Of a DNA stretch of 64,000 nt, positions 1-48,037 are shown in pieces (the stretch's first letter is position 1; each line of letters opens with the position of its first letter). Origin of the DNA: Nemertoderma westbladi (Eukaryota > Animalia > Xenacoelomorpha); assembly GCA_032718475.1 (NCBI GenBank), contig JAUCBJ010004109.1:1-64000 (forward strand). The letters run 5' to 3'. The notes beneath the pieces are model-generated. The model was not told the DNA's origin, did not search any database, and was given only the letters and a program-made list of their open reading frames with translations. A program made the translations under genes and the position numbers.

Positions 1-2279
1 AAATCCTCTAGATCGAGAGAAATCAGTTCGTATATCTCGGTATTACTATTTCGTCTGGGCCCTTATTCTTAAATTGAACTAAACCGTCGTCGCGTCGTCA
101 AGGATATCCCTCGTACTGAAGTTGACTCGGTAGCACTAAGGTAGGGTGTCCTGCTCCGTAGTCAATCATAAACCCTGGTCCGTTGTTGCTTATAAAACCC
201 AGCCTGTAGTCGCTATGGGACCCGGTCCAGTAGTTGCTAGGGATACTGGTCCGTTGTTGATTACTATTATTATTATTATTAATATTGGCTTTTATTCCCG
301 TATATGGATATATAAAGAGGAATATAATAGGTATATGATAGGGAACCCAGTCCGTTGTTGCTAGGGAAACCGGACCGTTGTTGCTTAGGAATCGGGTCCG
401 TAGTTGTGGTTGCAAGCAGGGAATCAGTTCCGTTCTCGCTAATGAATCCAGTAGTCGTTTCCAGCTGAGGAACTCCATCCGTTGTCGTTATGGACTGGAG
501 GAGCTCCCTTCCGACACCGCTAACTAACCGCGGCAGTGAAGCAGCTTATCAGGCAGTTGTCAGGAGGCAATGGGCTGCTCATGCTTAACCTTTTAATGTT
601 TTGCAATAAATAGATTGAAAAGTTAGGGTAATGAAAACGAGAGAAACTGTCTTTCAGTATAGTGTAGTCGTTGATAATGATGTGCAAACCCCATACAGTA
701 GAGAATAGGCCCCCACCACTGACCCGCCCAAGGCCACCCACCACTCATAATCCGGCGCTGAGTAACGTGATTAAAACGTAATTTTAATCACGCTTGTATT
801 TGGATGCGCGTAAAAATATTTCAATTTATGAACAAAAAACATAACTTTTAAGAACAAAAGTTTAATTACTTAGTTTTAAAAACACAAGTTGCTATACAAT
901 GATAAAACTTGACGTTTTTTCGGTATGTATAGACTTATTAGATATGACAATTGCTGGCTTAGACGACGACTTCCTTACCTGTTTTTTTTCTATTTGTATA
1001 ATTAAACTACACAATCCCAAATATATCACTGGAAATAATATAATGTAATAATCACATAGCAATGGTATACTATTCTATTCCTTGGCGTTACTCAAATATA
1101 TAGAATTGTATATAATATCTAAAACATCAACATTTGGCTTATCTGCCAAATCCCGGCGAAAAATGTAATCAAATAAATTTTCACAGAATTTAAACAAGGG
1201 GCACTTCGTGTCCCTGCTTAAATAAAATGATAACTACTTACGGTTGAACAGATAGGAACATGTTGTTTCTCTGTTTCCAATGAATTTTACTTGCTTGATA
1301 TTGGTCTGTCAAAAACATATTTCATTCAACCCAAAATTATATTTATGAGACGGTATCATGATGAACGTGGTTGTTTAAAATGCGTTCCTATTACTTTATT
1401 GAATTGTACTGTATAATATCTAGCATTCACGACTCCCTCTGGGAAAAGCAACTCTTTACCATAATATCGTACAAATCATTTCCTGTAATAATGAAAATAA
1501 AAATTAATAATGAAAATTACTGCCAAGATCTTTGTTTATTTAGACCTTTACTTGGTAACTGAAGTAAATTCATTGCATATTATGCGAAATTTAAACCCGA
1601 TTTCCAATAACAATTTCTTACAATATACACAAAAATAAAAATAAAATATATATGTATATGTATAGATAGAATATAGTATATTATATTGCCTACTGCAGCG
1701 TAAACTATACAAATAATATAATAATAATATTCATGAGAAAAAAACTATTTCATAAATAATATCTGAAAGTCCATATCGTGGGGCGGGTGGTAAAACGTCC
1801 TAAGTCTAAAAAAGTTGTTCTGAGAAAACACGTTTTTTGTTTACTATTTTAACAAAAATGCACATTTACACTGTTTTATTTCTCTTTCTAACTTTAAAAG
1901 GGTGTTGAATCGTTTTCTGATACCAGAAATACAGATAAACAGCCCCCTTGTAGGGCTTTTTGACAAATTTGCAACATAGGACGTTTTACCAATTTATATT
2001 TTAATGCGACATAGGACATTATATAACCAATCTTTTTTATGTTTATAACATAGGACGTTTTACCATCTTAAATATTTATGCGACATAGGACATTTTACAA
2101 ACTTTTTTCCAAGAAGTTTCGCAAAGCCCCCCCCCCCCCCCCCCCCCCCTCCGAATTATTAGGAGTAATATACAATTATACAAATAAATGTTTTGTTGTT
2201 GTTTAATATTTATTGTTATTTTTCAATAGTTGTATTGTTTATAACAAAATTATCTAAAGATAAACCAACATAAAGTTTA

Positions 2280-4680
2280 ATCACTTTCAATTTCGTCATT
2301 TCCCGCAACTATGATATCATCATTCACGAATTGAGATTCCGACAGTGTTTCGTAATATGCCCCGTTTGTTTTTTATATAAGACCTTGTTGGCAAATATCA
2401 AGTAAATCTTTTTTTTTCTTTAGACTAATCTTACGGGGACCAGTGAAAGCTAGAGACAGAGATGGGAGATTCTTACCTGCTGCATAAACTTCTTTACCTG
2501 TAGCTTTTCCTTTAAAATTTTGCTTTTTCCCCTTTCCTTTACTACATAGATTGCATCTGTCTCCAACTTTAGTTTCAGCTTTTGGTTTAATTTCAACAAC
2601 TTTAAATGGTTCATCCTCAGCACTAAAGCTGTATTTAAACTGAATGATGTTAGTATTTGTTTTCTGAAACCTCATCCATTTGACCTTAAGCCAGTTAACA
2701 TACTGTTTTTTCTGTTTTTTACAGCTCCGTTTATTGATCATTTTACCAATTTGGTCACCGACCTGTTCACCATTACATTCACCAATACGTCCACCCCTTT
2801 CTTCAACGACCTGTTCACCACTCCGTCCACCAATACATCCACCCCTTTGTTCAACGACCTGTTTACCACACCGTCCACCAATACATCCACCCCTTTGTTC
2901 AACGACCTGTTCACCACTCCGTCCACCAATACATCCACCCCTTTGTTCAACGACCTGTTCATCACTCTATCCACCAATAAGTCACCCCTTTCTTCACCGA
3001 CCTGTTCAAAACTCCGTCCACCAATACATCCACCCCTTTCTTCAACGACCTGTTCACCATCACCACTCCGTCCACCAATACATCCACCCCTTTGTTCAAC
3101 GACCTGTTCATCACTCCGTCCACCAATAAGTCACCCCTTTCTTCACCGACCTGTTCAAAACTCCGTCCACCAATACATCCACCCCTTTCTTCAACGACCT
3201 GTTCACCATCACCACTCCGTCCACCAATACATCCACCCCTTTGTTCAACGACCTGTTCATCACTCCGTCCACCAATAAGTCACCCCTTTCTTCACCGACC
3301 TGTTCAAAACTCCGTCCACCAATACATCCACCCCTTTCTTCAACGACCTGTTCACTACTCCGTCCACCAATACATCCACCCCTTTGTTCAACGACCTGTT
3401 CACCACTCCGACCACCAATACATCCACCCCTTTGTTCAACGACCTGTTCACCACTCCGTCCACCAATACATCCACCACTTTGTTCAACGACCTGTTTACC
3501 ACACCGTCAACCAATAACCAATACATCCACCCCTTTGTTCAACGACCTGTTGACCACTCCGTCCACCAATACATCCACCCCTTTGTTCAACGACCTGTTT
3601 ACCACTCCGTCCACCAATACATCCACCACTTTGTTCAACGACCTGTTTACCACACCGTCCACCAATACATCCACCCCTTTGTTCAACGACCTGTTCATCA
3701 CTCCGTCCACCAATACATCCACCACTTTGTTCAACGACCTGTTTACCACACCGTCCACCAATACATCCACCCCTTTGTTCAACGACCTGTTTACCACTCC
3801 GTCCACCAATACATCCACCACTTTGTTCAACGACCTGTTTACCACACCGTCCACCAATACATCCACCCCTTTGTTCAACGACCTGTTCATCACTCCGTCC
3901 ACCAATAAGTCACCCCTTTCTTCACCGACCTGTTCAAAACTCCGTCCACCAATACATCCACCCCTTTCTTCAACGACCTGTTCACCACTCCGTCCACCAA
4001 TACATCCACCCCTTTGTTCAACGACCTGTTCATCACTCCGTCCACCAATAAGTCTACCCCTTTCTTCACCGACCTGTTCAAAACTCCGTCCACCAATACA
4101 TCCACCCCTTTGTTCAACGACCTGTTCACAACTCCGTCCACCAATAAGTCTACCCTTTTCTTCAACGACCTGTTCACCACTCCGTCCACCAATACATCCA
4201 CCCCTTTGTTCAACGACCTGTTCACCACTCCGTCCACCAATAAGTCTACCCCTTTCTTCACCGACCTGTTCAAAACTCCGTTCACCAATACATCCACCCC
4301 TTTCTTCAATGACCTGTTCACCACTCCGTCCACCAATACATCCACCCCTTTCTTCAACGACCTGTTCACCACTACATTCACCTATTCGTTCACACCTTCG
4401 TTCACCATTCACCTGTCCACCACTCCCTACACCAACCTCTACACTGATCTGTTTTTCGACTGTATCATTGACACTAATGTCACTTATTACACGACGGTTA
4501 ACAATAAGAACCTTACATAGTTTCTTGAAATCGTAGATATCACTTTGTTTTAACAAAGTGATCTTATATGGATTATTTCGCCTCGCTCCTAGAATTATAT
4601 TTGTCCAATCATTAGGAACTTCTACTACCTGATTAGATTTAGCATACTCTATTGCGGAGTGCATGCTGTCCCCTTGAATT
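2280..4680 (-). pseudogene. C-terminal remnant of a Sola1-type DDE transposase split by a tandem array
   Basis: Motifs GDSMHSAIE...PNDWTNIILGARRNNPY...DIYDFK (ORF 3507..4664) and VNWLKVKWMRF...FKYS...KKKKDLLDICQQGLI (ORF 2373..2741) match, from memory, the Sola1 transposase C-terminus. The N-terminal part is missing and there are stops and frameshifts. Confidence 0.7.
2755..4400. repeat. 48-bp tandem minisatellite (~34 units, with 47- and 51-bp variants)
   Basis: Unit ~TTCAACGACCTGTTCACCACTCCGTCCACCAATACATCCACCCCTTTG. A 16-aa periodicity appears in all overlapping ORFs. Confidence 0.95.
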
Positions 4681-5120
4681 AGTTCTGTCTAGAATACTAA
4701 ACATTGCGACATTTTGGTCTTTTTGGAATCACTAAATGCCATTCAGCAAGAAATACTAACTATTAATAGTAATGGAACTCCTGTCTTGACTGACCTTTAA
4801 CGTGACAAAACGTCCTATGTTTCACTTTTAATTTGTTATTTGTAATCGTTTTTTCGACTTAGGACAACTTACCACCTTAAGTATAAAGTTAGGACGTTTT
4901 ACCATCCGTAGCCTTAACTTAGGACAACTGAAAATTTGCAAATAACTCCGTTAAACTGTTATTTTATCACTAATCCTTTGGTAGAAAGGAGGGAAATTCA
5001 ATTTTATACCCAATTCACTCAAAACATGAATTTTGAGAAAATTTGACTTAGGACGTTTTACCACCCGCCCCACGATATAAGGAATCAAATGCAATGGCTT
5101 TCACAATGCCCTTCTTTACT

Positions 5121-5230
5121 ATCACAACCAATCAGAATTACTCGCTGTCCCCCTCCAAGGCCTCAGCTAGCCAATCACAACCAATCAGATTTACTCGCTG
5201 TCCCCCTCCAAAGCCTCAGCTAGCCAATCA
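5121..5230. repeat. Short tandem duplication (~54 bp x2) containing CCAAT motifs
   Basis: ATCACAACCAATCAGA(A/T)TTACTCGCTGTCCCCCTCCAA(G/A)GCCTCAGCTAGCCA occurs twice in tandem. Confidence 0.85.
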
Positions 5231-6676
5231 ACTTCGGATACATCAGCCTCCCCATCATCGCTGGTTGTCTTGAGAAGTTCTGAATACTGAAAGAAATAGT
5301 CAGATGTATTACAAAGTCATATAAAGTTAAACTATAAAAGTAAACAGGTGATTCACATATGTCTGTAAAAACTGTTCCTGTATCATGACGATTTCAAAGA
5401 CATGATTTTGTCTCGAGCAAGTTCGTCAAAGGAGGACCGTTTTAAAGAAAATTACCTGCACCATTAACTAATTGTTGTGTCTGCCAATTGGGCTCCCTGT
5501 TGCGGGATAAATCCATTAATAATTTAAATATTAATAAGGGCATGCATGACGGGCTTTAGCTTGTTTGGATTGAAGCGCAGGGACCATCAGAGAGGGATAT
5601 AGGTGTAAATTGTTGGGAGAGCGTCTGGTTATTGAGTGTGAGGGAGAGAGAGAGAGAGAGGGAATCTGTATTGAGCTGTGATGGTTAGATTGCAATGGCG
5701 CGAGGTGAGTGGTAATTAAAAGGTCGGGTGAAGGGCAATGTAATAGTATGCTGAGGGGGGGAACCTGTTACCGTGTAGAAACAAGCCAATAAAAATAGCT
5801 TCCTGGTTGACACGGTAGGGAGTGCCTTATTGCTAAAAAAGTTTGGTTAACCAATCAGGATGCAATATAGATAGATAGGAAAATCCAATCTTGTTTTATA
5901 TACGAACAATATATTATTCTTGATGTAAATTAATTAGGACAGAATCCCCGAGAGGATGCAATGATTTGTAATGGGGCCCTTTGGCAGAAAAACCGATTAG
6001 CATCCTGTTTGGTTTTCCATAATTAAATATATTATTTACCGGTGAATTATTAGTAAATTAATTAGTATTAACTGAAATAACTAAAAAGGAAGAATGAAGA
6101 TAAACTATCATTTTGAATAGTACGTAATTTATGGGACGAGCCTTACGGGCGGGTTTTCGGTCAAACCCATATACCGTGTAACCACTGAGGGGATTCCAAG
6201 AACACTCCCACAATGCATTACCAATCGGTTATATGCAGTCTTCAAGTCATACTCATACTATTTTAATAGTTGAAGGCTAAAAACTCCATCGTTTATTAAA
6301 ATATTATAATTTTTTGTTTTTTAAACTACACCCCCAAACGGGGTAATCTGTATAAATATGATAATGATGACAATGCGTTACTGCTGACTTAATACATCAT
6401 TAATGGATTTTACCATTTTGCAAAATAGGCTGGAAACCTCACATCTGAGTTTGTTTTCTTTATGGAATAATATGATAATGACATCTGTCGCATTGTTTAA
6501 TCTAATTCACTCCTATTGTTTTGAACAGGGTTGTAGTAAAGTAACGTTGTAATTAAATAACCAATTAATATCAACAATCAACTACTCCCTTATTAATACC
6601 ATTCCCTTACAGCGAGATGATTTCTTACAAATATTTACTTTCCCCCTGTGCCACCTTTAGTTTTCCCCAACCTAGT

Positions 6677-8854
6677 TGTTACGGTATATGGCGCTGTATC
6701 CACAGTATTAGTCCATTATGCAGTATGCAGTATTAGTCCATTATGCAGTATGCAGTATTAGTCCGTTATACTGTACGTAATATTAGTCCGTTGTGCAGTA
6801 TAATTATTTAGATAAGGCGCAGTGTGGTGACATTTAGGTAAGGAAGTTAAAACGCCCATATATTTTGCATCCATTCATTTTGTATAGTATGTAGCCCTAC
6901 CTACGTAATTTTGTATTAGGATATATGTAGATAGTTCCAGGGTAGCGAGTTTACTCGGACCCTGGATTTTGTGCTTGCTGATATTAGTTTGATAGGGCTA
7001 GCATATAGGGACGCTGTCCTGGCCATTCAGCAGCCAGAGACGTGATCCATTACCATATATGGTAATAATTTGAGGGCATAGGGCTACAATCCGGTCTCCT
7101 TATTGGATTAACTGCTTCCAGGTTGGTTTAATGCTAGCATGGACTGGAGAGCCAATGGGAGAGCGATTGAGTCACCTTATTGCATCACCCCATCCGGATC
7201 ACCTATAAATTGGCGGTGTGCCGGTAGGGCCTTTGTTGTTCATATGTTCATGCCTTATCACATGACACACCCTTGTTACAATTTACTTGCTGAGCTGTCT
7301 CTAATTTCGTATTAGGATATCGTATTTTCTGCAATTTGCTAATTTTGATTAATTTCTTGGAATGATTTGCTAGTGCGATTACTTTGCTTGTGTTTCTCAA
7401 TAATTCCTTCGATTACTGCTAATTACAATTGAACTATGATTTCTACCTTTGATTAATGGTTCTATGTGATTCTTTTCTGCGCAATAATCCCAAGGGATTC
7501 CTGAGACTGTCAGACTTTGTGATTTGCATGCGCCGCTACAGTAGCTATTAGCATCATGGAGGGCTAAGGTGCCAGTGGGCGGTGGGCGCATCGGGGGGTT
7601 GAGCGACTAGGAGAGAGCGGAGGATTCAAAGCGGGCAACGCTGGCCAGGGTCACCGTTGCGGGCGGGTATCTTGCACTGCGGCACGCAGACCGATCGCCG
7701 GTACAGTATCTAGGGGGCTGATGATCCAGGTTTTGTCTCTATTTAGTATTAGGGGGGCAGGAATTGGGTTAGTTAGGAATCCTAGATGTACCCGGGAGAG
7801 GCCTGCGCGTATTATAACGTTGAGTGTGGAGTACGAGTAGTGAATTGCACAATTGTAAACTGTGATTTCTAACGCTGATTGGTGTGTTATTGAAGTGTGC
7901 CTAAGATTACGAATGCTTAGATAGGCGCTCTTTTTCCTTTGATTGATTTCTATTTCTTAGTTACAATAATTAGTTATTGATTAGGTCAAAGTAATACGGC
8001 AATTTAGGCTATTACTAGCGAAACCTGTTGCGTGATAAATTAGAATTACGTATTCTGGAACTCTTAGTAATTAGTACGCTGTTAAATATTTGTGACTGTA
8101 ATTAATTAGTAAAAATTAAGAATTAGTACGCAGCATAGCGGAGAGTAGCTAAGGTAATAATTAGTGTACTGTAAACTATTCACGCTGAGCGGTTATTTGC
8201 ATTAGCGGACAATCAGCTAGAACGCACTATTCGGTACGCACGATACGCTAGTAATTTTGCTGGCCTAAAGCCAGTCGCGGGCAGTTTTAGACTCGGAGTG
8301 GTATTATCCACGTAGAAACAGATACTGTACCATTTTGATATTTTAAATATTCTCGCATTCACACATTACGTTAGGGAACCTCCAGTATTCGCGATTAGAA
8401 AGACGTAGGTAATAGCGTGCTTTAATAGTGATAAAATTAGGCGTAAGAATACTCTGAGTGCAAGGCCTCTCGCACTCGTCTTAAGTAAGCTTAGGGAGCC
8501 GACTCGGGTTTATTGTTTTGGTTATTCCCGCGTGGCTCATAGATTCGAACAGTTAGCTCTCTATCGAGCGATCGGTAGAGAAAGGAACAAGCGATTTTGC
8601 AGGAGTTGTGTAAAATTAGTAAAATATATTAGTGGACGGCAGATTAGCGCCATCTAACGGTAAGTAGCGGTTTTGTATTTAGCAACCCTTACAATTTAGT
8701 AATAGCACGCTCCTGATCCCCTTTACTTAACAGTAGAGCAGTCTTTGTGTCTTATTGGATAGGCGAGAGCTTATTAGGTTGGCAGAAGGATATTAACGGG
8801 TATTGGTCTGTTCAACAGTTCTGCTGTTAGTATAGAGGTCGCGGTTGTTTATCA
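6677..8854 (+). repeat. 5' LTR (2178 bp)
   Basis: Starts TGTTACGG and ends TTTATCA. Direct repeat of 24624-26801 at offset 17947; only two mismatches noticed by eye. Candidate TATA (TATAAA) near 7204. Confidence 0.97.
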
Positions 8855-8866
8855 GTAATACGCGCA
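8855..8866 (+). promoter_or_regulatory. Non-canonical primer-binding site complementary to the element's own LTR
   Basis: The sequence after the LTR is GTAATACGCGCA, with no TGG. Positions 8856-8866 are the exact reverse complement of TGCGCGTATTA at 7804-7814. Confidence 0.65.
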
Positions 8867-10044: not shown

Positions 10045-12327
10045 ATGAGTGTCTCAGACAAAGAGGCACTAGAGGACAGCTATGAGACGGCGGCTGGACC
10101 GCCGACTGACGATAGCGTCAATATTACTGTTGATGACAATGCCGACTATGACGACGCAGCGAGCGACGCTGACGTAAGTGAACAGGAGGACGAGACAGTG
10201 ACTAGTGAGGAAGAACAGCAGCCTCAGGTAATAGTATTAGGATCCCCTACCGCTACTGATAGGAAGGACTGTACGGCAGCCCGGACAGAGGTGAGTGATA
10301 GGGAGGGTAGTGTAGCAGAAGCGAGAGCCCGGAGCCCGGTTTCCAGACCTGTGGGTATGGTAAGTGCCGTGGTCCCGACGGCTGTTAGGAGTACCCGTAG
10401 TTCCCGAAATAATCCTTCAAGTCCACCGAGCGTAAGTCAGGTGAGTGATAGAGAGTTCGATATCGCGATAAAGAAGAAACTTCGCGCGCATGCCGGACAC
10501 ATAACCCGGACGGCGGACAAGGTAAGGAAGATGTTAGCTGACTCAGCGAACATCGGGAGGGTAGACTTAGTAGAGATTAGAAGAGGATATAACTCAGCGT
10601 TATTCAAGCAGACGGAGGAGCTTGCAGTCCTAGCGAAGAAGGCAGTAGAGTCTCAGTCGAGCGACGTAGCAACGAGGATTTACGACAGGGTTTTAGCAGC
10701 CTTGTTAGAGCACCGCGAGTTATCGGAGCGATTCCGACGAGTTAGGACGGAGAACTGGCTGCTATGGACATCACAAGCGCAGGCGACTCAAGTGAGTGAC
10801 GCAGAGTTGAGAGAGTTAGTGGAGCGAGAAGAGATCCAAGACAAGGAGGAGCGCAGGTATCAAAGGGAAGTTACTAGCTGGCTGATGCAGAATGGAGTGG
10901 TGGTACCAGGTCAGGTGCTACCGACGACGGAGAACATCCAACAGAGGACGTTGACTCCACCCGATGATGCATCTAGAGACAGCGGCGATTCCCAGGTTAG
11001 TCACGTGCGAGGTAAGGTAATATGTGCTAGATCCCTTGTTTCTCACAACTCGGCAGAGGAGAGAAGACGCCGACTAGACGAACAGCAGGCGGAAGTTTTG
11101 CGTGCATCGGAAGCACGGAAGGAAGCCGAGCGGGAACGGGAGCGAACACGTAAGTTAGACGCAAAGTTGCGAGAGTTGGAAGACAAAGGTAAGCGTGAGC
11201 AAGCGGAACGCGAACAGGAAGAACGAGAACTCCAACTTGAACGTGAACGCGAAGAGCACGAACTCCAACTCCAACGCGAACGCGAACTCCAACTCCAACG
11301 CGAACGCGAAGAACGTGAACTCCAACTCCATCGCGAACGCGAACGGGAAGCTAAGGAACGCGAGCAAAGAAGACGCGAACTCCAACTCGAACGCGAGCGC
11401 AAGGAGCGCGAACTTGAGCGCGAGAGGGAGCGACGGGCGTTGTATGAAGAGAAGGCGCGTGTAGAAGAAGAGGGCGCAGCACGACGAGCGAGGGAAGAAG
11501 AAGAACGTAAACTGGCGCAGTTGGAAAGTGCGAGATTAAGTTTAGAAAGCGAAGAACGGACTAGGAAGGCGAACGAAATCGCCGAGAAGGGGATGCGAAT
11601 GATCGAAGAATGTGGGGCGAGTGTAGGGACTGAGTTGCGAGAACTGTTCGCACTGCAGAAGGCCGAACAGGAAGCGAGAACTCCGACTATACGCGAGTCG
11701 ACGACGACCAGAATTCCTATACCCGGTCCAGCTATTACGAGTACACGGATCGCTAAACCATTCTCTACATATCGCACGCCAGTTGGTATTAGTGCTTCAC
11801 CTATCGCGCAGAATCCACGTCATCGGAACACCGCACCACTGCACACCGAACACGACGATGAAGAATTTAGAGAAGAAACTCCGACGGGCCGAGTATTTGG
11901 CGAACCGAACCCGCGGGTTTGGAATACGCAGACGGAGCGCCGACCCAGTTCGACGGAGAACTTCCGGGTTAAACCGGAAGAGGGATCATATGAGAGACAG
12001 CGGATTACTCAGATAGAGCCGACTATACAACAGAACCCTAGCCAGGAATTTATTACGAGGGATGAGTTAAGTGCTAGTTTAGCGCAAGCTATATCGCCGC
12101 ACATCCAACCTATAACGGACATGCTTAGCAACCTACGGTTAAAGGAAGCAGCCCAGGTAAGGAGTAATTCTAATCCCAGCAGGCCTGAGTTAGATAAAGT
12201 CCAGCCTAGTCAACGAGTACGCATATCGGAGGAAACTATACCACATAGACCTCAGGTAAGGACGCCTGTCCCGAATATCCATAATCCCAATTTCGAAAAT
12301 TCGGCAGAAAGATACCTAAAGAGGTGA
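10045..12327 (+). CDS. gag: BEL/Pao Gag N-terminal part (putative exon 1, 10045-12313; 760 aa if unspliced)
   Basis: Acidic N-terminus, helical KKKLRAHAGHITRT region and long E/R coiled coil, as is typical upstream of the BEL Gag core. The stop TGA (12325-12327) lies inside the putative intron's P1 loop. Confidence 0.85.
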   Translation: MSVSDKEALEDSYETAAGPPTDDSVNITVDDNADYDDAASDADVSEQEDETVTSEEEQQPQVIVLGSPTATDRKDCTAARTEVSDREGSVAEARARSPVSRPVGMVSAVVPTAVRSTRSSRNNPSSPPSVSQVSDREFDIAIKKKLRAHAGHITRTADKVRKMLADSANIGRVDLVEIRRGYNSALFKQTEELAVLAKKAVESQSSDVATRIYDRVLAALLEHRELSERFRRVRTENWLLWTSQAQATQVSDAELRELVEREEIQDKEERRYQREVTSWLMQNGVVVPGQVLPTTENIQQRTLTPPDDASRDSGDSQVSHVRGKVICARSLVSHNSAEERRRRLDEQQAEVLRASEARKEAERERERTRKLDAKLRELEDKGKREQAEREQEERELQLEREREEHELQLQRERELQLQREREERELQLHREREREAKEREQRRRELQLERERKERELERERERRALYEEKARVEEEGAARRAREEEERKLAQLESARLSLESEERTRKANEIAEKGMRMIEECGASVGTELRELFALQKAEQEARTPTIRESTTTRIPIPGPAITSTRIAKPFSTYRTPVGISASPIAQNPRHRNTAPLHTEHDDEEFREETPTGRVFGEPNPRVWNTQTERRPSSTENFRVKPEEGSYERQRITQIEPTIQQNPSQEFITRDELSASLAQAISPHIQPITDMLSNLRLKEAAQVRSNSNPSRPELDKVQPSQRVRISEETIPHRPQVRTPVPNIHNPNFENSAERYLKR

Positions 12328-13502
12328 GGTCTCTATAGGGGTGTCTTTAGCAGGCGGCGGCGGACTCGTGAGGGTCTGGGGGCACGTTAAAATCTGCCGT
12401 ATAGTGCAAGGGAGTTACTTAAGGCCCTCGTGTCTAACGAACCATGAATCGACATGGTGCCGTGGTATCGTCTAGTCGGCCTGTTGCCGTACTGCCAGTC
12501 CTGTACACAGTAGGGGTGGTGGCATGGCGTGATTTGTGGTTCATGTGGTGTGAACTGTGATTTGTATGTGGGCGACCAGTGGCAGTTAGCTTTGGGGCTT
12601 GGATGTGTGCCATTGACCGTCAGCTGTTCCGTTTTTTTGATACTATATGTTATTGTCTCCATGTTCAGCTGATTGGTCCTTGGAGTGTGTTTAGGTCTGA
12701 GATGAGCTTTCTGTTGCTGTGGGTACGTGAGTACACGTGATTGTATGTGTGGCCACTGCGAGTGAGTGTGGGAAACCTTGCCGGTTGGCCCAGACGCCGC
12801 TGGTATTAGTAGGACCATACTTTACTGCGCCCCAGCATACTTTGTGCACACAAGTTATTTTACCCTGACGGTAAAATAAGGTACTCTCGACTTTCTCATT
12901 CTCTCTCAAGTCGATACAACTAGTCCCTCCCGATTTTGACCCCGATTTTGTCTTTCCCGATTATGTCCTCTGTGTGTGCATGGTATGTGTCAGATTTTGT
13001 GTTTACCGTAGTGTACTTGATATTGTGAACATCTGTTGAGTACACGTGTATAGGACTGGTAAGTGGTTACTTGTTCCTAGCTTTCGAGCTAGTCAGTATT
13101 GTTTGCGGAACTTACTTCCCCTCAATACTGCCGGCGAGGCGGGTGAAAATGTGTCAAAATTCCATGTGGGGTAGCGCAAGCCCACATGGGACAAGACCGT
13201 CGGTTAGGCCCAAGGGCGACCTTGGTGCTTGATCGCTATCGACTGGTCCACCCGCCGGTTGACTCTCTGAGTTGGCTCAATGTACAGTCAGGCCACAGTG
13301 AGTTGACAGTAGCGGCCCATCTGGCTACACGTTCGACGAGCTGTGCCGGTGTGATCGGGGGACCGAAAACAGAACCCGGGAAGCATCGGGCCACCCTCCG
13401 GCCCGGTCTGATAATAACATCAGTCAGACTGGCCCCAGGGGTGGTGGAAAGGTGTCCGCCTCGTGGGTGCGCCTCGGGGAGGAGCCCAGAAGGACACAAG
13501 CG
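12314..13502 (+). ncRNA. Putative group I self-splicing intron within gag (3' end uncertain)
   Basis: P1 AAAGAU(12308-13)/GUCUUU(12343-48) with U.G; P3 GGCGGGUG(13138-45)/CACCCGCC(13249-56); P4 13149-55/13195-200 with A-rich J4/5; P5 13160-91; P6 CGGUUA(13201-06)/UGAUCG(13230-35) plus a GCGA-capped P6b; J6/7 CUA; P7 U-C(bulge)-GACUG(13239-45)/CAGUCA(13285-90); P8 13257-77; J8/7 CAAUGUA; several P9-region hairpins; candidate terminal G at 13502. Confidence 0.8.
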
Positions 13503-16500
13503 TTATTGAGGAAGCTTGGGTCAGGGCCTCGGCGCGCAAACCATCGCGAGCGCTAAGGACTGACACTGAGTCAAGCGATGAAGAGGAAGAAATGAGACGT
13601 CAGAAGTCCCGAAACTATAAGGAAAGAAGGACGGACGCGGAGCAGGTAAGTTGGAACCACCGGGAAAGGACCAGACTTAGCAACCCTGCGGAACTAAACC
13701 ATTTGTTAACCCGGAACGACGCAACCCTTAGAGACATAGGTAAGTTTGCTGCTAGGCAAGGACTGCCGACGCAACAACCCCAGAAGTTTATGGGTAACCA
13801 CAAGCACTGGAGGACCTTCAAAACCTATGTCGACGAGCAGCTAACCAACAGCACCTTTACTCCCAACGAGAAGTTCAACTATTTGCTTCAGATGCTCCAT
13901 CGAGAACCTAGAGCCATTGCTGATAACTTCGTCGGCAATGAACGGGCATTCGAGTTAGCGATGAAGACGCTTAGTGACATCTACGGGAATAAAACCAAGA
14001 TGGCGCAGTCGATAGTAGAAGACTTGGGTAAGGGCGGAAGGATTACAACTCCGTTAGAGCTGTTGAACTTAGCGAACGCTATTTCGAACGCATTGGACAT
14101 CTTGAGGACGGTGAATCTACCTCATCATGGTGATCACGCCGAAGTTTTGAAAAGCGTAATAAGACGTTTAAACATGCGTTACAGACAGAAATGGCGCAAA
14201 TTAGAGAATAAGTTGGAGGGCCAAGGTAAAGTATTGACACTTCAGCATATTCATGACATGATAGCCACAGACGCAGTAGCAGATATGAAATCAAACTTCT
14301 CAGAAGAGAATATGAGGGAGTCTAAACCTGTTACCGGTAAGTCTATGGTAAGTTTTGACGATGACAGGACCACTGTGACATTTAACTCAGTAGACAGATA
14401 TAATTCGAGTACCCCAGCCTTTAGATCAGACTCGCGAGTATGGTCAGGTGAGCGGTTAGATAGACCTAGGTTAAAGCAACAGGAGTTACCGGATGGATTT
14501 GTAGGTTGCCAATACTGTTTACTAAAGGAGGTAAGATCTGACGACCATAAGTTAGATAGTTGCAGACGGTTCAAAGAATTAAATTCGGAACAGAGAAGAG
14601 TTCAAGTGCGGACGTTGGACACCTGTTGGGCATGTCTTGCGCCAGGTCATGTACGGCGGCAGTGCCCTAACAGCAAGGACGGATGCATGGAATGCGGCAG
14701 ACTACATCACAAGTTGCTACATGCGGATTTCCATACCCCAACGGACCGTTACTTACAGCGAAATCCTCACAGGAAGGGGAGCAAAGAACCCGTATCGATA
14801 AGGAGGAATACATACACTGGCATCCGGGACGATGGTTACCAACCAGGTTCGTCGGACGAGGATGGCGAGTCGAGCGCGAGAGAAGTGACCTGCCAAGGTT
14901 TCACCGCGGATAGTTCATCGACCAGCGCGCGGACGTATTTATCATCGGCCACGTCGGAAATATTTAGCGTGATTCCGGTGAAACTCACTGGCGATAAGGG
15001 ATCGAAGCGAATATATGTGATGTTGGACACTGCGTCCACATTATCATATATCGACGAGGAAGTGGCGAGAGCCGTTTCTAGCTTCCAGGACGCCGAGGAG
15101 ATCCAAATAGAGTTGAAGTCTATGCATGGGGTAGGAGACCTCAAGGGACACAGAATTTCGGTGGAACTAGATTCCCTACTTCCGAGAGACCAGCATACTC
15201 GACAAGAACGGAAAGCTTTGCCATTGGACGGATTTAAGTGTCTAGCTATGAAGGGATTCGGCAGGCAGTTAGGTAAGGTGCCGCCGATGAGTCCCATAGC
15301 ACAGGAGTATTTTGACAAGCTCAGGATACCCAGACACCAGGTAGGTTATAGGAATGTTTCTATGTTAATTGGTGCAGAACAGCTGATCGCACACCAGATA
15401 TGGGAAACGAGACCAGCTGAGCCGCATGTCAATGGACCACATGCCCATAGGACCATACTAGGTTGGTATACACGAGTACCCATGTCTTATGAGTTTACAG
15501 GTGGCGACAAGCCAATGGACAGATACGACGAATTACAGCCTATAACTCAACCACCGTTAGTAGAACCACCAGACATAGACGAGTTTAGGAGAACCTGCAT
15601 TGACCACTATAGTGACTTTAGCGAGTCGGACGAGGAGTTGATTCCCGATAATGTTAGGTTGTCGGAACCACTTCATAACGACCGGACAGATAGTGAACCC
15701 GAGGACTACTGTTATCAGACCCGTGGGTCTGGTTCAGCGGCCCACGCTACCTATTTGACTAACGTTTTGACTTATACAGACATAGTGGAGGGTCAAGTGG
15801 CTAAATATCGAGACCTAGACATTTTCCAATACAGTGAGGAGGAATTACAGAAGGAATTGATACGCCAGGACCTCGAGACAGGAGCCAGAACCGTCGAATG
15901 GCTGGATAGGGACGCAATGGAACCCGGTGGATATGACCTAGCCATGTCTACTGATGAGAAACGGTCGCTGGAGATGATGGAAGACACCATACGTCTGCTA
16001 CCGACTGGACATTTTGAAGTTGGAATGTTGTGGCGTCGACAACCACCTAAGTTGGAGAACAACTACAACTTAGCCTTGAAAAGATTGAACGGAGTAAGGG
16101 CTCGGTTGTTGAAGAATCCGGACATTAGGGAGAAGTATTGCGCCCAGATCAACAACTATTTCGCCAAGGGATTTGCTGGGAAGGTAGAGGACCCTGACTT
16201 AGTGACAGACCAGACTTATTACCTTCCACACCACTATGTGACTCACCCTGACAAGCCAGACAAAGTCCGAGTAGTCAACGACTGCGCAGCAGTCTATAGA
16301 GGTATGTCCCTGAATTCAGAGTTGATGGATGGTCCCAACCTGAATAACTATTTGATAGGAATACTGTTGCGTTTTAGACAGCGGCGATTCGCATTTACTT
16401 GTGACATCGAGGCGATGTTCCACCAGGTAAGAGCCTGTAAGGCAGACCAGGATAGCCTTCGCTTTCTCTGGTACGAGAACGAAGACTTATCCGGCCCAGT

Positions 16501-18364
16501 GGTTACATACCAAATGTACGTTAGGATATTTGGCGCCCGCGATAGTCCGAACGGCACGCTGTTTGTTCTAAAGAAAACGGCAACAGCCCAGATTGGTAAG
16601 TACCCAGTAGAAGTAATCGAGTCCATCTTGAGAAACTTCTATATGGACGACGGATTGGTGTCCAAGGACACGGCGGAACAAGCCATAGAAGTGGCTCACG
16701 GCCTGCAAGAGTGCTTGGCTACAGGGGGATTTCCTCTGACCAAGTTCACTACTAATTCGGAGGCCCTATTAGAATCGTTCCCGGTAAAAGATCGCGGGAG
16801 CGGAGACATAGAATTGGGGGTAGAACCAATCCCCATGGCGCGAGTACTGGGACTCGCTTGGAATCCGAATTCAGACAAGTTCCAGGTAAGAGTTAGATTT
16901 GAGCCCAGTAGCCCAGACAAAGTTTTGACAAAGAGGATTTGCTTATCGACATTAAGTAGAATATTTGACCCGATGAACTTTATCAGTCCGGTTATATTAC
17001 AGGCACGAGCGTGCATGAGGAAAATTTGGTTGTCCGACTTAGAGTGGGACGAACCAATATCTCCTATACATGCAAAGCAGTGGAGGGAGTGGGAAGCCGA
17101 GTTGCATCTGTTGAAAAATATAGATGTACCCCGTTCCTACTTTCCGAATCAGTTGGTATTTCCAACTGATTTAGAGCTGCACCTATTTAGTGACGCAAGT
17201 GACACCGGCTTTGGTATGGTAGCCTACCTTCGCCGAGAGGTAAGTCAGGACAAGTTTGAGACGGCCTTTGTGACTTCTAGATCAAAGACAATGCCGGTCA
17301 AATATATGACTGTCCCTCGTGCAGAGTTACAGGCGGCTGTAGTTTCGGTCGAGGTAAGTAAGCAGATAATTGAGGAGTTAGACACGACATTGACCTTATT
17401 CTATTGGACGGATGCATCCTTGGTGTTAGTATACATTGCGGCCGACAATATTGCACTAAAGACATTTGTGGCCAATAGACGCGCTCAGATCGTTGACTTT
17501 TCAACGAAGGAACAATGGAGACATTGTCCGGGAGTGTTGAACCCGGCCGACATAACTTCGAGAGGTGCAATGCCGGCGGAATTCTGTCGGGAAGAGTCGC
17601 AGGAGTTTTGGTTGCATGGACCTGATTTTCTAACAAGGACACAGGAACATTGGCCAGAGCGACTAAAGATAGTGACCAATCCGATGCCTGAAGATGCAGA
17701 AGTCAAAGTGGAGAAAGTCTCTAAGTCGAAGTCTAAAGCCAAACTTAAGTCATTGGAGCGGCCTGAAGAGTCATTGGAGCGGCCTGAAGAGTTATTGGAG
17801 CGGCCCGGAGACCTGTCAGACCAACAGACTTACGTGACTACTAGGTCAGGAAGGGTAAGTTATGACGTAAAACCACCCTTACAGACTAAACCGGAGTCAC
17901 AGTTGGTAAGTGACGGACAGAAAATGACCGACACAATGGAGCCTTTGGTTTCCAAACCTGCGGGTTTGGATTCGAAACTTCCATTGGTCAGCGGACAACC
18001 GTCGCTGGCATTAGAGTCATGCAGTATTTATGACAAATTACTAAATTCGTCTGCCTCTTGGCTGACAATTTGTAAAAGAACTGCGTGGTTAAGCCGATAC
18101 GTTTCGTACCTTTGTTTAAAACATTCGAAACATTTGAGAGAACCATCGAGCGCCAATAGTGAGCGAATTCGGAAATTGAAACAACCTCTGACAGAGGATG
18201 AGATTGATCAAGCGGAATTAAAGCATTTGAAACACTATCAAATGTGTGCCTTCCCAAAAGAATTCCATCTATTATCGGCTCAACGACTAGTTCTCTATAA
18301 ACCCCTTAGAAAATGGAGTCCATTAATCCATAAGGGTTTGATTTGTCATAGATCGAGAATCTAG
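13503..18364 (+). CDS. gag-pol: BEL/Pao Gag core, zinc knuckles, protease, reverse transcriptase and RNase H (putative exon 2; ORF track 13463..18364)
   Basis: Gag core KFMGNHKHWRTF...EKFNYLLQML; knuckles CQYC..H..C, CWACLAPGHVRRQC, CMECGRLHHKLLH; PR LDTAS; RT DIEAMF and YMDD; RNase H FSDAS, ELQA, WTDA, NPADITSRG. No convincing own start (the track start is GTG). Confidence 0.95.
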
Positions 18365-19615
18365 ACTGTCGACATAAACTCACAGTTTCGGTTCCCAGTG
18401 ATAATCCCTAGTCACCCAATAGAATTGCAAAGAGCGATTCTATGGGATATACACAAGAGGTTGCATCACGCGGGAAAGTTACACTGTCTGTCGGCAGCGA
18501 GACAGCGATTCATTCTATTGCAGCCAAGCAGGGCAGTAGGCACTATGTACGACGCCTGTCTGGTTTGCAAGAGAGTGAACGCCAGAGTATTGGAACAGGA
18601 GATGGCTGAACTCCCGGAAGCGAGAGTGCAGGCATATGACCCACCCTTTACGAACACAGGGGTGGATTGTTTTGGTCCGATTGAGGCAAAGAGTGGACGG
18701 CTGACCCACAAGCGATGGGGTCTGCTACTGACATGTATGGCGAGTAGAGCCATACACATCGAGCGTGTGGCAGACATGTCGACCAAATCTCTGCTCCTGG
18801 CCTTAAAGAGATTTATGGCCAGGAGAGGACTAGTAAAGGCGTTCTACTCTGACAAGGGTACAAACTTTGTCGGAGGGAATAGCGAGTTGAACGCGGCTCA
18901 TAAAGCAGCACAGAATAAGGAAATTTCTGCAGCACTTTTGCCGCAACGAGTAGAGTGGAGATTCAATACTCCAGAAAGTCCTTGGAGAGGAGGAAGTTGG
19001 GAGCGTTTAGTTCGCTCTGTAAAGCAGGCCATTGCTAAGACGTTGCCTGTAAACAAACAACTTACCGACGACGAACTGGTTACAGCTTACATTGAAATCG
19101 AGCATACCCTAAACTCGAGGCCGATAGCTATGTTGCCAGACGGTGTTGCATTAACGCCGAATCATTTGCTAATGCAGAGTCCAGCATTTCTTGTGCCGGC
19201 ATCAGAACCCATTAGTGCCGACCTATATAGTCGTAAGAGCTGGAAAGTAACACAGTTAGTGGCGTACACATTCTGGGAATATTGGCGGGAATACTATCTT
19301 CCCACCATATCTACCAGAACAAAGTGGTACAAGACGGTTCGGAGTCTCCAAAGGGGAGATTACGTGTTGATAACCGAGCCGATTATCAAGAGAAAGTATT
19401 GGGAGACAGGAGTTATCTTGCACACACACCCAGACGCGCAAAACATAGTGCGCACAGTCACTGTGAAAATTAGGTGCAAGTGTCCGCACCCAAAAAAGTG
19501 TAAAACTGATGGTTTGCACACCTTGGACCGACCGGTCCAAGATATTGTGTTATTAGAGGAGACACGTATCGAGACGGGAGATTATAATTTGTCTCCTGCC
19601 TCAAAACAGAGTTAG
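18365..19615 (+). CDS. Integrase, same frame as pol, separated by a single TAG
   Basis: HHCC (IHKRLHHAG...CLVC), DCFGP, SDKGTNF, GGSWERLV. The frame continues RSRI*TVDINSQFRFPVIIP across TAG 18362-18364. Confidence 0.93.
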   Translation, partial: TVDINSQFRFPVIIPSHPIELQRAILWDIHKRLHHAGKLHCLSAARQRFILLQPSRAVGTMYDACLVCKRVNARVLEQEMAELPEARVQAYDPPFTNTGVDCFGPIEAKSGRLTHKRWGLLLTCMASRAIHIERVADMSTKSLLLALKRFMARRGLVKAFYSDKGTNFVGGNSELNAAHKAAQNKEISAALLPQRVEWRFNTPESPWRGGSWERLVRSVKQAIAKTLPVNKQLTDDELVTAYIEIEHTLNSRPIAMLPDGVALTPNHLLMQSPAFLVPASEPISADLYSRKSWKVTQLVAYTFWEYWREYYLPTISTRTKWYKTVRSLQRGDYVLITEPIIKRKYWETGVILHTHPDAQNIVRTVTVKIRCKCPHPKKCKTDGLHTLDRPVQDIVLLEETRIETGDYNLSPASKQS

Positions 19616-20373
19616 TGTTGGACGCAACTCACTTCGTATGCATTCCTCGTATGCAAATACAAGGAAATGCATAGGAGCGGGGTTGTGGTGATTTGCGTTG
19701 AGTTTTGTCTGGTGGGTATCAAAACAAAATTTTATTTCAAAAATTTTGGAAAAAATTAGAAAATTTTAAAAATTAGAAGTGAACCCAAGACAATTCCAGA
19801 CGCTGTGTATAGACGCGTTTTAGAATTCGTCTATAGATAACAGTAATTTGAAAGTCGTGAAGCCTGGAAAATAGCATTTAGAAACCATGGTGACGGCTAT
19901 ATTACGTAGGAGTGTAAATTGAGTTTAGCAACTTCCACAGATTGGTGCCAACAGTGCAACTAAGGTGCTAAAGGTTAGTAGCACCAGAGGCGTGCACGGA
20001 CCCCACTCAGTAGTTTGCAGGATGTGTGATGTTCGATTATCAAACCTGTGGGTTTGGTATAGTCGAGTATTGTGGCTATGGTCCTTTCTAACTACTGTAG
20101 TTTAGTACGAGTAATGGGAGTAGTTTGGGCATCAAAAAGTGAGTTGGTCACGGCCAGTTTATCTCCAAAGTTTTTGCGCTATGCATGGGAATAGGTTAGA
20201 GGATAGTTAGTTAGGAAGAGACGGGATCTAGAGAGTCGAACCTGAACTGCTGGAAGGCGGGGGGGGTTCGGGAGGTCTGTCCTTCGGCGACATCTAACTG
20301 ATTTACCCACAGTGTAGTTGGTTACGTAACGGCACTTATTGGGATATATATATATGTATATACGCGTAACATA

Positions 20374-23300
20374 ATGGAGAGGGATATTAGAGCGCAACCG
20401 CGCAGAGGATTTACTGCCAGAGAGGAGGCGGAGCTACCATTCGCGCGACCAGGATGTAAAGACTCTAACATTTACTACCATGGGCGGTCCGTGATGGAGC
20501 TGAACGGGAAGTACAAACCAAGTTATGATAAAGAATTACGGAGAGAAAGAATGAGAGCGTTGGGGGACCGGATGGAAGTCTTGCGGAGAGAGTATCGCAC
20601 GCGGTATCCCTACGACTTTGCTTTGGACGTGTGCGACATTAGCGCAGATCCGGACGAGGAAATCGCACGACTATACCATATGAATATGTATTTACGACAT
20701 GAGGAGCCTCTACCTGCAGTCCGAGACCAGTTCGACGGAATGCACCTGTATCGGAGGACTCGAGGCGAGGATCAGGAGACGCCGAAAGTCTTCGGCGTAT
20801 ACAAGCTCTTCTACAAGTGTGGTGAATGCATGAATAAACAGGACGTGGCGATTCCCGACCGATTAGACGAGCAACATCCGGAACCGATATTAACGCGATG
20901 TCCAGCTCACCAATTCCTTAGATACAACGAGGGAGGTTACCCGATGAGCAACCCGATGATCAGTATCGACTTCAGCGGAAAGCGACCTCCGAGACCCATT
21001 ACGCCGACCGTTACGACATTAGATCCGTATACGGAGATTAAACCCTGTTCGACACCCAGTTTGATAGAGACGGCAGCGGCCATTTCGCTGTACCGAGCCT
21101 ATAAGGATCTAGAGGCGCGGCGCGAAGCGGCGCGGGACTCGGGTACCAAACCCGCGGGTTTGGAGCTCTCGAGTCCCTGGACTGCGTTTACTTCACCTCA
21201 CCGAGTGAGAAGCCTCACGCCTGAGCATCAGGACGACATAGACGCGTTGCGGCAGGAGGAGCGAGCGGCGAAGGCGAAAGAGTTATTTGAGAACAGGATA
21301 GCGGAGTATAATAAGACCGCGGATAGACATCAAGAGGAGACGAGGAGAGTGACCGGATTTGTTCCACAGGTCGTATCTCAACCCGGACCGGTGTATTATT
21401 CCGACGGCACCGAACCTGCGATATTAGTAGATCATCCGGAGTCGCGAGAAGCGATACGATTCTTGCCGATGGTAAGAATGGCGGACCATTGGAACGTTGA
21501 CTGTCTACGGGAAGTTTTATGCGCGAAGTTCTTGCGTGATGTCCCAATGCAGATCACAGATTACGACACTTTGGATAAGATTGGAGCTCCGGGGAAGGAG
21601 AGTAAACTATTCGGATGGTTGGATAAGTACATCAAGGTATGGGTCGCGGTGGCTACATTCCCAGACGACGAGGAGGTAGACCAGACGTGGCTGAGGAGGA
21701 AGGGTTCTTATACCCGATATGATGACCACAAGGCTATCGAGCGCATGTGGACCCCATCAGATGAGATTCAGCGTCAGTGGAGGAAAACGGAGGAATCACT
21801 GCAGGATTGGAGAGTGATGTTCTACGACAATGAAGGAGGGTCCCATCAGGAATGTTTGACCAGCAAGTGTATTCAAATTCGTGCGGCCGATGGTGTGACT
21901 CATGTGTTTATGCGTATGAGGGCGGATCGAGAGAGACCGGAGCCCATCATAACGACACAATATCGGAAAGGGAAGGATCCTAGGGAACCGATTTTGGAGG
22001 TATGCAGGCGAGGAGGTATGCACGGAGCGGAGCGTATCGACGCCAGGATGTTACCCAAGAAAGTTAGAGAGGCTATTCTCAACCAAGATTACGTCAAGGT
22101 GGGATCGGGAGCCCAGAGCGATTTGGAGAGCGACTTCAACGCCATGACTGATCTGGAAGATAGATTGCCGAGACCGTTTGTCGACACCAAGCTATTGTTG
22201 CTATGGGCACAGGATATTGGAATTTATAGGGAGTATCCCAACTCTGCCAAGACTGGTATGGGCTTTATAGCACACTTGTTGTATAATTGGGACTTTAAGT
22301 TAAAGACGCAAAAGAAGTACGAGGAGGCGTATGGCGAATACAACACGCCACCGGGAGCGGAGTTCAAATCCCACTTCAAGCGGCAAGCGTTAGTGTATTG
22401 GAACATTTGCGCGCCACCCCGTGCGTCGCTACAATATTATTTGGTGCTTGAGTCGAACACGGTGACTTGTTTATTAGCGGATATCGTTGCGCGAGTTTTG
22501 AAGCGTCATCCATTGGTATTCGGAGGAGATCAATACGTTCGCTCGAAAAGGGGAATCCAATCCGACGTGATGAAGCGTTTCTTAACCCCGTTCTTCAACC
22601 AATCGTTAGAGAATACGTCGATGGTGAGGAGAGGATTAGCGATATTCGAAGGAGTATATCGACAGAACATCGGAGATTTGGGAGACCGACCGTCGATGGA
22701 ATATCCGACGCCAGAAGCTTTGGAGAAGTGGTTCGGGAATCAAACCCGCGGGTTTGGTACTCCCTTCCACTCGGAGGCTGATAGACCTGTTAAGGAGGGC
22801 TGGCCGGAAACGTTAGTAGAGGTGTTCGGAGTAGATCTTCCGGTGGAGAAGACATATCCGAAACGAACGCGGGAGGAAATATTGGAGATAGAGGACAAGG
22901 GCGAGGATGTTTACTTTGTTCCGGATCGACAACCGTTGACCGGAGAGGACGACATCGTATTAGACATTGGGAAGGAAGGAAGTGCGAAACCGATTGGAGA
23001 CCTCATATACGAGAGGGCCTGGTTTCCACAAGCGCGTAGGTGCAAATTGTGCGGCAGCACAAGGCACAATCTAAAGTCGTGCGACGCGGTAATAGAGGCG
23101 GCGCATAAGGTCTGTCGTTGGTGTAATGAGACCAACCATTCGTTTCACACGTGCACCGTCTTCATTTCTCAATGTGGATATTGTGGAGTAAAAGGACATC
23201 GTAGCGCGAGATGTCAGCTGCGAGATGATTCCTTTCAAAACCATAGCGCTAACCTACTTCGGGAGATGTTAGACAAGTGGGAGAGTGTGGCGGATTACCA

Positions 23301-31495: not shown

Positions 31496-31790
31496 GCTGG
31501 GCGCAGTGGCGAGCGCCTGTAATCCGAGCGACTTGGAGGCCGGGATTGGAGAACCGCTTGAGTTTGGGGCCCCTATCGGGTTCTGTGCTATGTCGATCGA
31601 GCGTCCGTGCTAAGCTCGGCGTCAATATGGTTGGCCTGTCGGAGGGCGGGCTGACCAGGTTGTCTAAGGAGGAGTGAACCGGCCCAGGGCGGTGACGCAG
31701 CAGGCAAAAGCCCCCACGTTGTGCAGTAGCGGGATAGCGCTTGTGAATAGGCAGGTTCGGTAGCCCAGGCAATAGAGTGGGACGCAATCC
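31496..31790 (+). ncRNA. RN7SL: 7SL signal recognition particle RNA (metazoan type)
   Basis: Alu-domain start GCTGGGCGCAGTGGCGAGCGCCTGTAATCC; helix 6 GGAG loop; helix 8 CCAGGGCG-GTGA-CGCAGCAGG; GGGATAGCGCTTGTGAATAG; ~295 nt long; AT-rich box TTATTAAAA about 35 nt upstream. Confidence 0.95.
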
Positions 31791-31799
31791 TTTTTTTTT
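31791..31799 (+). terminator. Pol III terminator (T9)
   Basis: T-run immediately after the 7SL 3' end. Confidence 0.85.
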
Positions 31800-47660: not shown

Positions 47661-48037
47661 CTTCTTATTTATTTTATAGCAAGTTTAATATTTAATAAAC
47701 GTAGTGGTACTGGTACATACTTATTATACTTTGAAGAAAGTCGATAAGTTACTTTACACCATGACAGTATGGTTGTACAAAACAAACCTACCGAAATAAA
47801 AGTGCTAGCTAACTACGAAACGCGCAAATTACCAAGATTTAATTGGTACAATAATGAGTAGTCCAGTATATTGAAACAGTGAACAGTACCGGTACCTGAT
47901 ACTGCTGACAGTTGGCTGAGAAAACAAATAAACGGACGTTTTCTTCCTAAACCAAGGAAGTATTTCAAATATCCCGCCTTTTGTAGGAATGCCTACTGCC
48001 CAATGGTTCGCTATTGGCTAAATTGATTAGTGATGGT

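Follow-up and report, generated by a model that had tools for sequence, protein, structure and literature searches.

The window analysed here, 64,000 nucleotides of Nemertoderma westbladi contig JAUCBJ010004109.1 (positions 1 to 64,000, forward strand), contains a BEL/Pao long terminal repeat (LTR) retrotransposon at 6677–26801, and the gag-pol gene of this element is interrupted by a block at 12314–13502. A preliminary description, made from the sequence alone, had read the block as a group I self-splicing intron. By homology and compensatory base changes, the block is almost certainly a group I intron. Taken as a whole, the locus is likely to represent a member of a group I intron family that Rfam does not model, lodged in gag-pol of a young BEL/Pao element and removed by guanosine-initiated splicing between U12313 and G13502. 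At 20.1 kb, with LTRs of 2.2 kb and a leader of ~1.2 kb, the element is unusually large, and this copy is young, with mismatches at 2 of 2178 bases of its LTR pair. It carries the DUF1759, Peptidase_A17, Integrase_H2C2, and DUF5641 domains (Pfam) of BEL/Pao elements, with the integrase after reverse transcriptase (RT) and RNase H, TG...CA LTR ends, and a 5-bp duplication. Its features are as follows.

6672–6676 and 26802–26806: 5-bp target-site duplication flanking the BEL/Pao element
6677–8854, + strand: 5′ LTR, 2178 bp, TG...CA ends, 2 differences from the 3′ LTR
10045–12313, + strand: 5′ exon, with AUG and the N-terminal low-complexity part of gag; U12313 is the first base of a split codon
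12314–13502, + strand: block of 1189 nt interrupting the gag-pol frame, almost certainly a group I intron
13503–18364, + strand: 3′ exon, with DUF1759 capsid, CCHC knuckles, protease, RT, and Peptidase_A17/RNase H (Pfam); TAG at 18362–18364
18365–19615, + strand: integrase (Integrase_H2C2, DUF5641), in the same frame beyond the TAG stop
20302–24210, + strand: third open reading frame (ORF), in the envelope position, 1302 amino acids, with Cys/His knuckle-like motifs
24624–26801, + strand: 3′ LTR, from comparison of the LTR pair

Intron fold and splice sites

Excision of 12314–13502 creates a single open frame of 2376 codons (by codon count) from the AUG at 10045, as the preliminary description had proposed for a junction of U12313 with 13503, and the frame downstream of the intron is open for 1619 codons. 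Unspliced RNA, by contrast, reaches a stop at 12325–12327, four codons inside the intron and ahead of capsid and pol. Because the intron precedes the regions for capsid (DUF1759), zinc knuckles, protease, and RT, the whole functional gag-pol product would need intron removal. The earlier proposal that pol expression depends on splicing was too narrow in scope. A Pfam scan of the 5′ exon product found no family.

All of the group I core elements of the preliminary description were recovered where it had placed them, and the intron can be laid out as listed below. By convention (Tetrahymena numbering), guanosine binds at the G:C pair that follows the bulged base of P7.

12308–12313/12343–12348, + strand: P1, 6 of 6 pairs, with U12313•G12343; guide at 12343–12348
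12314–12316/12340–12342, + strand: P1 extension, 3 bp
12320–12323/12331–12334, + strand: inner hairpin of P1, conserved in the family
12349–12495, + strand: P2 multi-helix domain, common to viral and retroelement relatives (blastn, RNAalifold)
12486–13065, + strand: lineage-specific peripheral insertion, predicted to close on itself by a long stem
13133–13294, + strand: catalytic core P3-P4-P5-P6-P7-P8, matched by covariance and hidden Markov models
13138–13145/13249–13256, + strand: P3, 8 of 8 pairs
13149–13155/13195–13200, + strand: P4, one bulged U
13161–13170/13181–13191, + strand: P5, simple hairpin
13201–13215/13220–13235, + strand: P6
13239–13245/13285–13290, + strand: P7, bulged C13240, predicted guanosine-binding pair G13241:C13289
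13258–13265/13269–13276, + strand: P8
13291–13502, + strand: P9 domain, with P9.0 formed by 13292–13293 and 13500–13501 and terminal G13502

J3/4 and J6/7 are each 3 nt, with P4 and P6 stacked. P5 is a simple hairpin (13161–13191), and so the P5abc extension that marks subgroup IC1 is missing, as had been noted before. Subgroup IA introns carry P7.1/P7.2 between P7 and P3; only 3 nt separate these helices in the window and in the family alignment described below. The 3′ part of the intron folded with better energy than shuffled sequences (z –3.8, 0 of 100 shuffles), and the 5′ part did so weakly (z –1.7, 12 of 200). A loose group I descriptor was also satisfied by 16 of 2000 dinucleotide shuffles of the block, and elsewhere in the window it matched at two further places; a descriptor match alone is weak evidence, and homology is the decisive test. 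Family relatives gave no blast coverage of the insertion at 12486–13065, which is overlapped by 17 ORFs of at least 30 amino acids, the longest on the sense strand encoding 67. No endonuclease or transposase family of the kind that defines homing introns or IStrons was found among them, the Pfam scan having covered the two longest ORFs (both antisense) and not the other 15.

Several lines of evidence support the predicted splice sites at U12313 and G13502. First, in relatives the guide G, 7 bases ahead of a conserved motif, pairs with the U-ending exon of the respective host; P1 formed with the intron's own exon has 6 of 6 pairs in 11 of 12 introns (mean 5.83, compared to 3.23 for swapped exons), a contrast that is inflated, to the detriment of the argument, by the choice of 5′ splice sites for best pairing. 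Second, in 36 distinct tails among the 120 metagenome loci collected, nearly all with differing 3′ exons, conservation runs up to a terminal G and no further; P9.0, located before this G, is 97.9% paired in 24 tails, and the window tail aligns with these and ends at G13502. Third, the block-skipping joints listed for sequencing runs, described below, resume at 13503. We assign the intron end to G13502 because the family tail and P9.0 stop there and these joints have exactly this length; the other in-frame terminal Gs that had been considered (13493, 13514, 13520, and 13526) are dismissed on the same grounds. The intron ends are AC..CG, in keeping with the non-GT-AG junction predicted earlier and in conflict with spliceosomal GT..AG at the observed joints.

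The preliminary description had also paired the 3′ exon with 12331–12338 as P10. This proposal did not hold up as a family feature: among 12 introns, own exons averaged 4.75 of 8 pairs and swapped exons 4.55. The window pairing itself reaches 7 of 8, a value attained by 6 of 132 exon swaps, and the proposed intron strand is the 3′ arm of the conserved inner P1 hairpin. P10 is an accessory element and is missing from some group I introns.

Relatives of the intron

A covariance model (CM) built from 54 related cores, with the window excluded, gave one match in the 64 kb, at 13133–13294 (130.2 bits, E 1.3e-29), and a hidden Markov model (HMM) from the same cores also matched only there (E 1.9e-32). 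The cores were collected by pattern. A 20-letter pattern from P7 and J8/7 of the window returned 22 viral loci, 19 of them genuine members, and a second pattern returned 28 viral loci (28 genuine) and at least 120 metagenome loci (115 genuine). From 120 usable segments, 54 cores of less than 90% identity were aligned without the window. The pseudoknotted structure of the preliminary description paired 97.7% of the 1727 cells in this alignment, compared to 24–47% in controls with slid partners, and two-sided (compensatory) changes were present at 7 of 8 P3 pairs and 6 of 8 P8 pairs.

A pattern confined to P4 found a further 74 viral loci with 56 distinct cores, of which 45 were placed and 38, with the S element, tabulated. 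P7 had 6 of 6 pairs in 35 of the 38, the other three being misplaced. The first P7 pair varied among the 35 (U-A 15, C-G 10, A-U 7, G-C 3), and the bulged base tracked it, being C with U-A or A-U and A with C-G or G-C; in this set the placement script demanded the letters GAC and GTC in P7. Outside the regions touched by the collecting patterns, the 5′ domain (12314–12495) matched relatives by blastn down to E 3e-32, and the P2 domain showed two-sided change at 23 of 36 pairs (RNAalifold, 17 sequences). The P9 domain showed it at 31 of 39 pairs, with 93.8% pairing across 24 sequences. Covariation in relatives, which the preliminary description had named as a check, was thus found in P3, P7, P8, and P9. 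Two circumstances subtract from these counts: in the 54-core alignment the search pattern dictated P7 and portions of P4 and P6, and the pairs of P9 were counted in the very alignment used to predict its structure.

Rfam found no group I intron in the window at gathering threshold, and RF00028 gave no match even at E 10. The preliminary description had listed such an outcome as grounds for rejection, but viral members of the family were missed as well (no matches in one set of 20 loci, and in a scan of 20 loci one match, to a different neighbouring intron). The missing match is uninformative because Rfam fails on these members too. One study, PMC6125680, reports archaeal introns that subtype models detected and RF00028 did not, a single model covering subtypes poorly.

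Judged by homology, the intron is one member of a family that Rfam does not model, common to giant viruses and other LTR retroelements, and is not a singleton. Viral members, among the nearest relatives of the window intron, interrupt capsid, DNA polymerase B, helicase, and RNA polymerase genes of nucleocytoplasmic large DNA viruses (NCLDV). Among the 80 metagenome loci with flanks, nine lie in or beside LTR-retroelement genes, namely gag (L070, L109, L090, and weakly L067), RT/RNase H (L058, L068, L056, and L123), or integrase (L071), and three are NCLDV-like (L053, L091, and L127). The RT of L070 matches, at up to 84%, intact gag-pol proteins with Ty3/gypsy domain order, and the gypsy gag of L109 is interrupted without a scar at a site across which 20 homologues are continuous. 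Scarless placement in a conserved motif was also seen in DNA polymerase B, at YGDTD/S in L028 and L036, with 3′ ends placed by frame. Insertion sites share no common sequence beyond guide complementarity. A tblastn search of the 120 metagenome loci collected with BEL/Pao proteins as queries found no match and hence no second BEL/Pao case.

An exact 22-nt core pattern found no metagenome contigs, and annotated phages yielded nothing beyond one 35-nt match at E 3. A search of 185,579 prokaryote genomes with an exact pattern, which cannot show absence, gave 10 matches; four loci on three contigs were genuine by model, and the flanks of two of these contigs read as giant-virus genes (by reading, not Pfam).

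A few further arrangements were seen among the relatives. Family introns stand in tandem at the 3′ end of large-DNA-virus capsid genes in L014/L041 and L175/L176, 555 and ~840 bases apart. A canonical RF00028 intron lies near a family core at L185:950–1237 and L172:2649–3019; that in L185, where the core P7 could not be placed, is possibly nested. L057, L061, L064, L065, L066, L075, L094, L113, L114, and others, from two metagenome data sets, represent a single family intron in many nearly identical, decaying copies that share their non-coding flanks, and they look like a dispersed repeat carrying the intron. Family cores also stand beside a collagen-repeat ORF (L129:19–429) and a histone ORF (L073:2–370), hinting at flanks of animal or other eukaryotic chromosomal DNA.

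Intron-bearing and intronless copies

Six public sequencing runs contain the stretch, none recorded as RNA, and five were examined (X1–X5, with X4 from organism B); depth in these runs is not copy number. The exact joint of 12313 to 13503 was present in X1, X2, and X3 at depths of 1213, 2017, and 1312, in three contigs each. The other block-skipping joints listed have identical length once replaced letters are counted, with T at the 12313 position, and no GT..AG joint across the block was among the joints listed (15 of 16, and 3 of 3). X4 contained an intronless contig together with intron pieces; such pieces occurred in five runs, four from organism A and one from organism B. X1–X4 look like DNA, and intron-bearing and intronless copies coexist, the intronless ones being common and having more varied flanks.

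X5 showed a different pattern, with depths of 31 on the 5′ exon, 286–5243 across the intron, and 8.5 and 0 on the 3′ exon, so that intron depth was ~10–100 times exon depth. One X5 contig starts at 12314 behind a loose end that we take to be a template-switch adaptor, with one G more than such an adaptor would carry, and three X5 contigs depart from the reference at 13502 with discordant letters. This pattern, from one run, suggests accumulated, excised, G-extended linear intron RNA. We consider it likely that the intron is spliced in vivo.

Several observations weigh against this conclusion. The joined form in the DNA-type runs represents intronless copies and is no proof of splicing. X5 is labelled 'DNA?', and its apparent cDNA nature rests on the presumed adaptor; an extra G at 12314 can also come from a capped transcript. 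The sole X5 junction contig (depth 25.6) has a 5′ exon that pairs with the window guide at 5 of 6 positions and may derive from an intronless copy. The X5 adaptor contig carries three other letters at 12346–12348, also present in part of the X1–X3 depth, which pair poorly with this exon; the variant guide may come from the same intron inserted elsewhere, and a search of the element for a second site matching it gave none. At 13168 and 13230, both paired positions, there are run-wide differences whose partners were not among the rows listed, and none of the rows listed spans an exon-intron border with 31 bases on each flank.

In the mechanism we propose, guanosine would attack at U12313•G12343, ligation would follow at G13502, and gag-pol would then be translated. 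Splicing would be incomplete, and unspliced RNA would still be reverse-transcribed to give intron-bearing copies. Because an LTR element copies its RNA, spliced templates would give intronless copies, and the existence of a very young intron-bearing copy implies either recent copying of unspliced RNA or regain of the intron. We infer this partition of spliced and unspliced RNA from the presence of both allele types. Catalysis by the RNA without protein is somewhat more likely than not. A requirement for host or element proteins, such as the Gag nucleocapsid acting as an RNA chaperone, is possible, if the less likely case: the long peripheral insertion (12486–13065), the lack of P5abc, and the absence of a supported P10 fit it, as do myxomycete introns with large insertions that are described as not self-splicing (PMC3679873), but no part of the core, P2, or P9 domains is missing, and these domains are shared with viral members that sit in many unrelated genes.

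For spread of the family, we lean slightly towards an RNA-level route, in which the intron would reverse-splice into RNA at guide-matching sequences and then be reverse-transcribed by the host retroelement. Reverse splicing with the element's RT is the most economical route because no endonuclease was found, the many sites share only guide complementarity, and the identified non-viral hosts are reverse-transcribed. The main rival to this route is spread as DNA, driven by a trans-acting homing endonuclease or by recombination between virus and host, with retrotransposons merely tolerating the intron. The family is common in giant-virus core genes, and endonuclease-less offspring introns are thought to have homed in trans in a giant virus (PMC5871332). 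The lack of a common site sequence beyond guide complementarity and the fact that the identified non-viral hosts are reverse-transcribed elements (9 of 80 loci, compared to 3 giant-virus loci) make DNA-level spread doubtful. Against the explanation as a whole, most retroelement relatives are fragmentary or degenerate, and the frames of L070 are off by one base. In the core tree (59 rows, 35 unlabelled), viral and retroelement members appear mixed, with no branch support for this, at five label changes for each group of which starred branches force only one; we claim neither donor nor direction.

A further alternative is that the insertion is dead or nearly so, with intron-bearing copies moved in trans as non-coding passengers of intronless ones and the X5 intron RNA coming from other loci or an internal promoter. 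Intronless copies are indeed common, with the more varied flanks; a different guide is present in the X5 contig that begins at 12314; and this copy has a stop before its integrase and differs from other copies at 12420, 12468, and 13150, the latter two positions forming Watson-Crick pairs in other copies and G•U in the window. All helices are nonetheless kept, the 1619-codon downstream frame is open, and the RNA ends match both predicted splice sites to the base, and we regard a dead insertion as improbable. Spliceosomal removal, an unrelated structured insertion, or an assembly artefact, for which in-frame GT and AG pairs near both block ends and the missing Rfam match might be cited, is largely refuted by the absence of a GT..AG joint among those listed, by family homology at E 1e-29 or better, and by intron pieces in five runs from two organisms.

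Genomic setting and significance

The surroundings of the element agree with the animal nuclear LTR-retrotransposon setting described earlier. Other features of the window are these.

28186–29628, 46527–47684, 51528–52490, and 60127–60783, – strand: host genes with MFS_1_like, EamA, PDCD9, and Mff domains (Pfam; long open frames)
31496–31793, + strand: Metazoa_SRP RNA (Rfam, 251 bits)
35756–37645, – strand: non-LTR reverse transcriptase (Pfam)

Mff and BEL/Pao elements are mainly animal. We assign the window to animal nuclear DNA because Metazoa_SRP RNA, host genes including Mff, and the BEL/Pao element occur in it together. Several satellite arrays are also present.

No close relative of the element emerged from protein searches: two returned nothing within their length limits, another gave no exact match, and the best representatives were 40% identical. 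Its third ORF (20302–24210) had no Pfam family and no match among 150 BEL/Pao relatives. The in-frame TAG at 18362–18364 separates RNase H from integrase in an otherwise young element and is either a copy-specific lesion or a readthrough site. At the expected position of a tRNA primer site, following the 5′ LTR, 11 bases (8856–8866) are the exact complement of LTR-internal 7804–7814 (also 25751–25761), an arrangement resembling that of self-primed Tf1-type elements.

Animal mitochondrial group I introns occur in cnidarians, sponges, and placozoans; compared by description only, they resemble the window intron in interrupting animal protein-coding genes and differ in being organellar, not nuclear. 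Among nuclear group I introns, those of ribosomal DNA in fungi and protists (IC1 and IE) are similar to it in the U•G pair of P1, the P3–P7 core, the terminal G, and nuclear location. Here, in contrast, the host is a protein-coding retrotransposon gene of an animal, P5abc is lacking, and RF00028 fails; PMC3679873 and PMC9548176 describe nuclear group I introns as reported exclusively in ribosomal RNA (rRNA) genes of microbial eukaryotes. Group I introns are also described in protein genes of giant viruses (a chlorovirus IB intron, PMC7019647; Bodo saltans virus, PMC5871332) and in Polinton-like viruses of protists (PMC12220804). Like the window intron, these interrupt mRNAs in eukaryotic cells; unlike them, it resides in a chromosomal LTR retrotransposon that replicates via RNA, the published chlorovirus introns being compared by description only.

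Two other associations of catalytic RNA with mobile elements bear comparison. IStrons are reported to combine a group I intron with an IS605-family transposon (PMC13521648, PMC10690162); the transposon genes lie within their intron, which conceals the element from bacterial hosts, whereas here an intron lacking such ORFs interrupts the element's own gene. Hammerheads in Penelope elements and retrozymes (PMC4209133, PMC7761336) likewise place catalytic RNA in a retroelement RNA cycle; they are small self-cleaving motifs, whereas the window intron is of a splicing ribozyme type inside a coding frame. A literature search, with most subscription journals outside its coverage, found no description of group I introns in animal LTR retrotransposons. 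The intron occupies a place where none has been described and belongs to a family missed by standard models, and the evidence for its excision is suggestive.

Conserved and apparently expressed within an animal mRNA, this group I intron contradicts the rule, as worded in PMC3679873, that such introns in nuclei are confined to rRNA genes of microbial eukaryotes. PMC3679873 also describes evidence for a complete route of reverse splicing, reverse transcription, and integration as lacking. Residence of the intron inside an RT-bearing element, with intron-bearing and intronless copies together, makes the RNA-level route testable from population and RNA data. A family invisible to Rfam in giant-virus capsid and polymerase genes and in LTR-element genes also means that intact genes may be annotated as broken, and the family offers new splicing ribozymes that would function in animal cells. 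In the broadest reading, which we hold with even confidence either way, the family is a parasite of animal nuclear reverse-transcribing elements that shuttles to and from giant viruses, reverse-splices at guide-matched RNA sites, and is fixed by the RT and integrase of the element; in BEL/Pao it would act as a ribozyme switch separating translatable spliced RNA from genomic unspliced RNA. If true, this would be a natural, ongoing instance of the full RNA-level mobility pathway.

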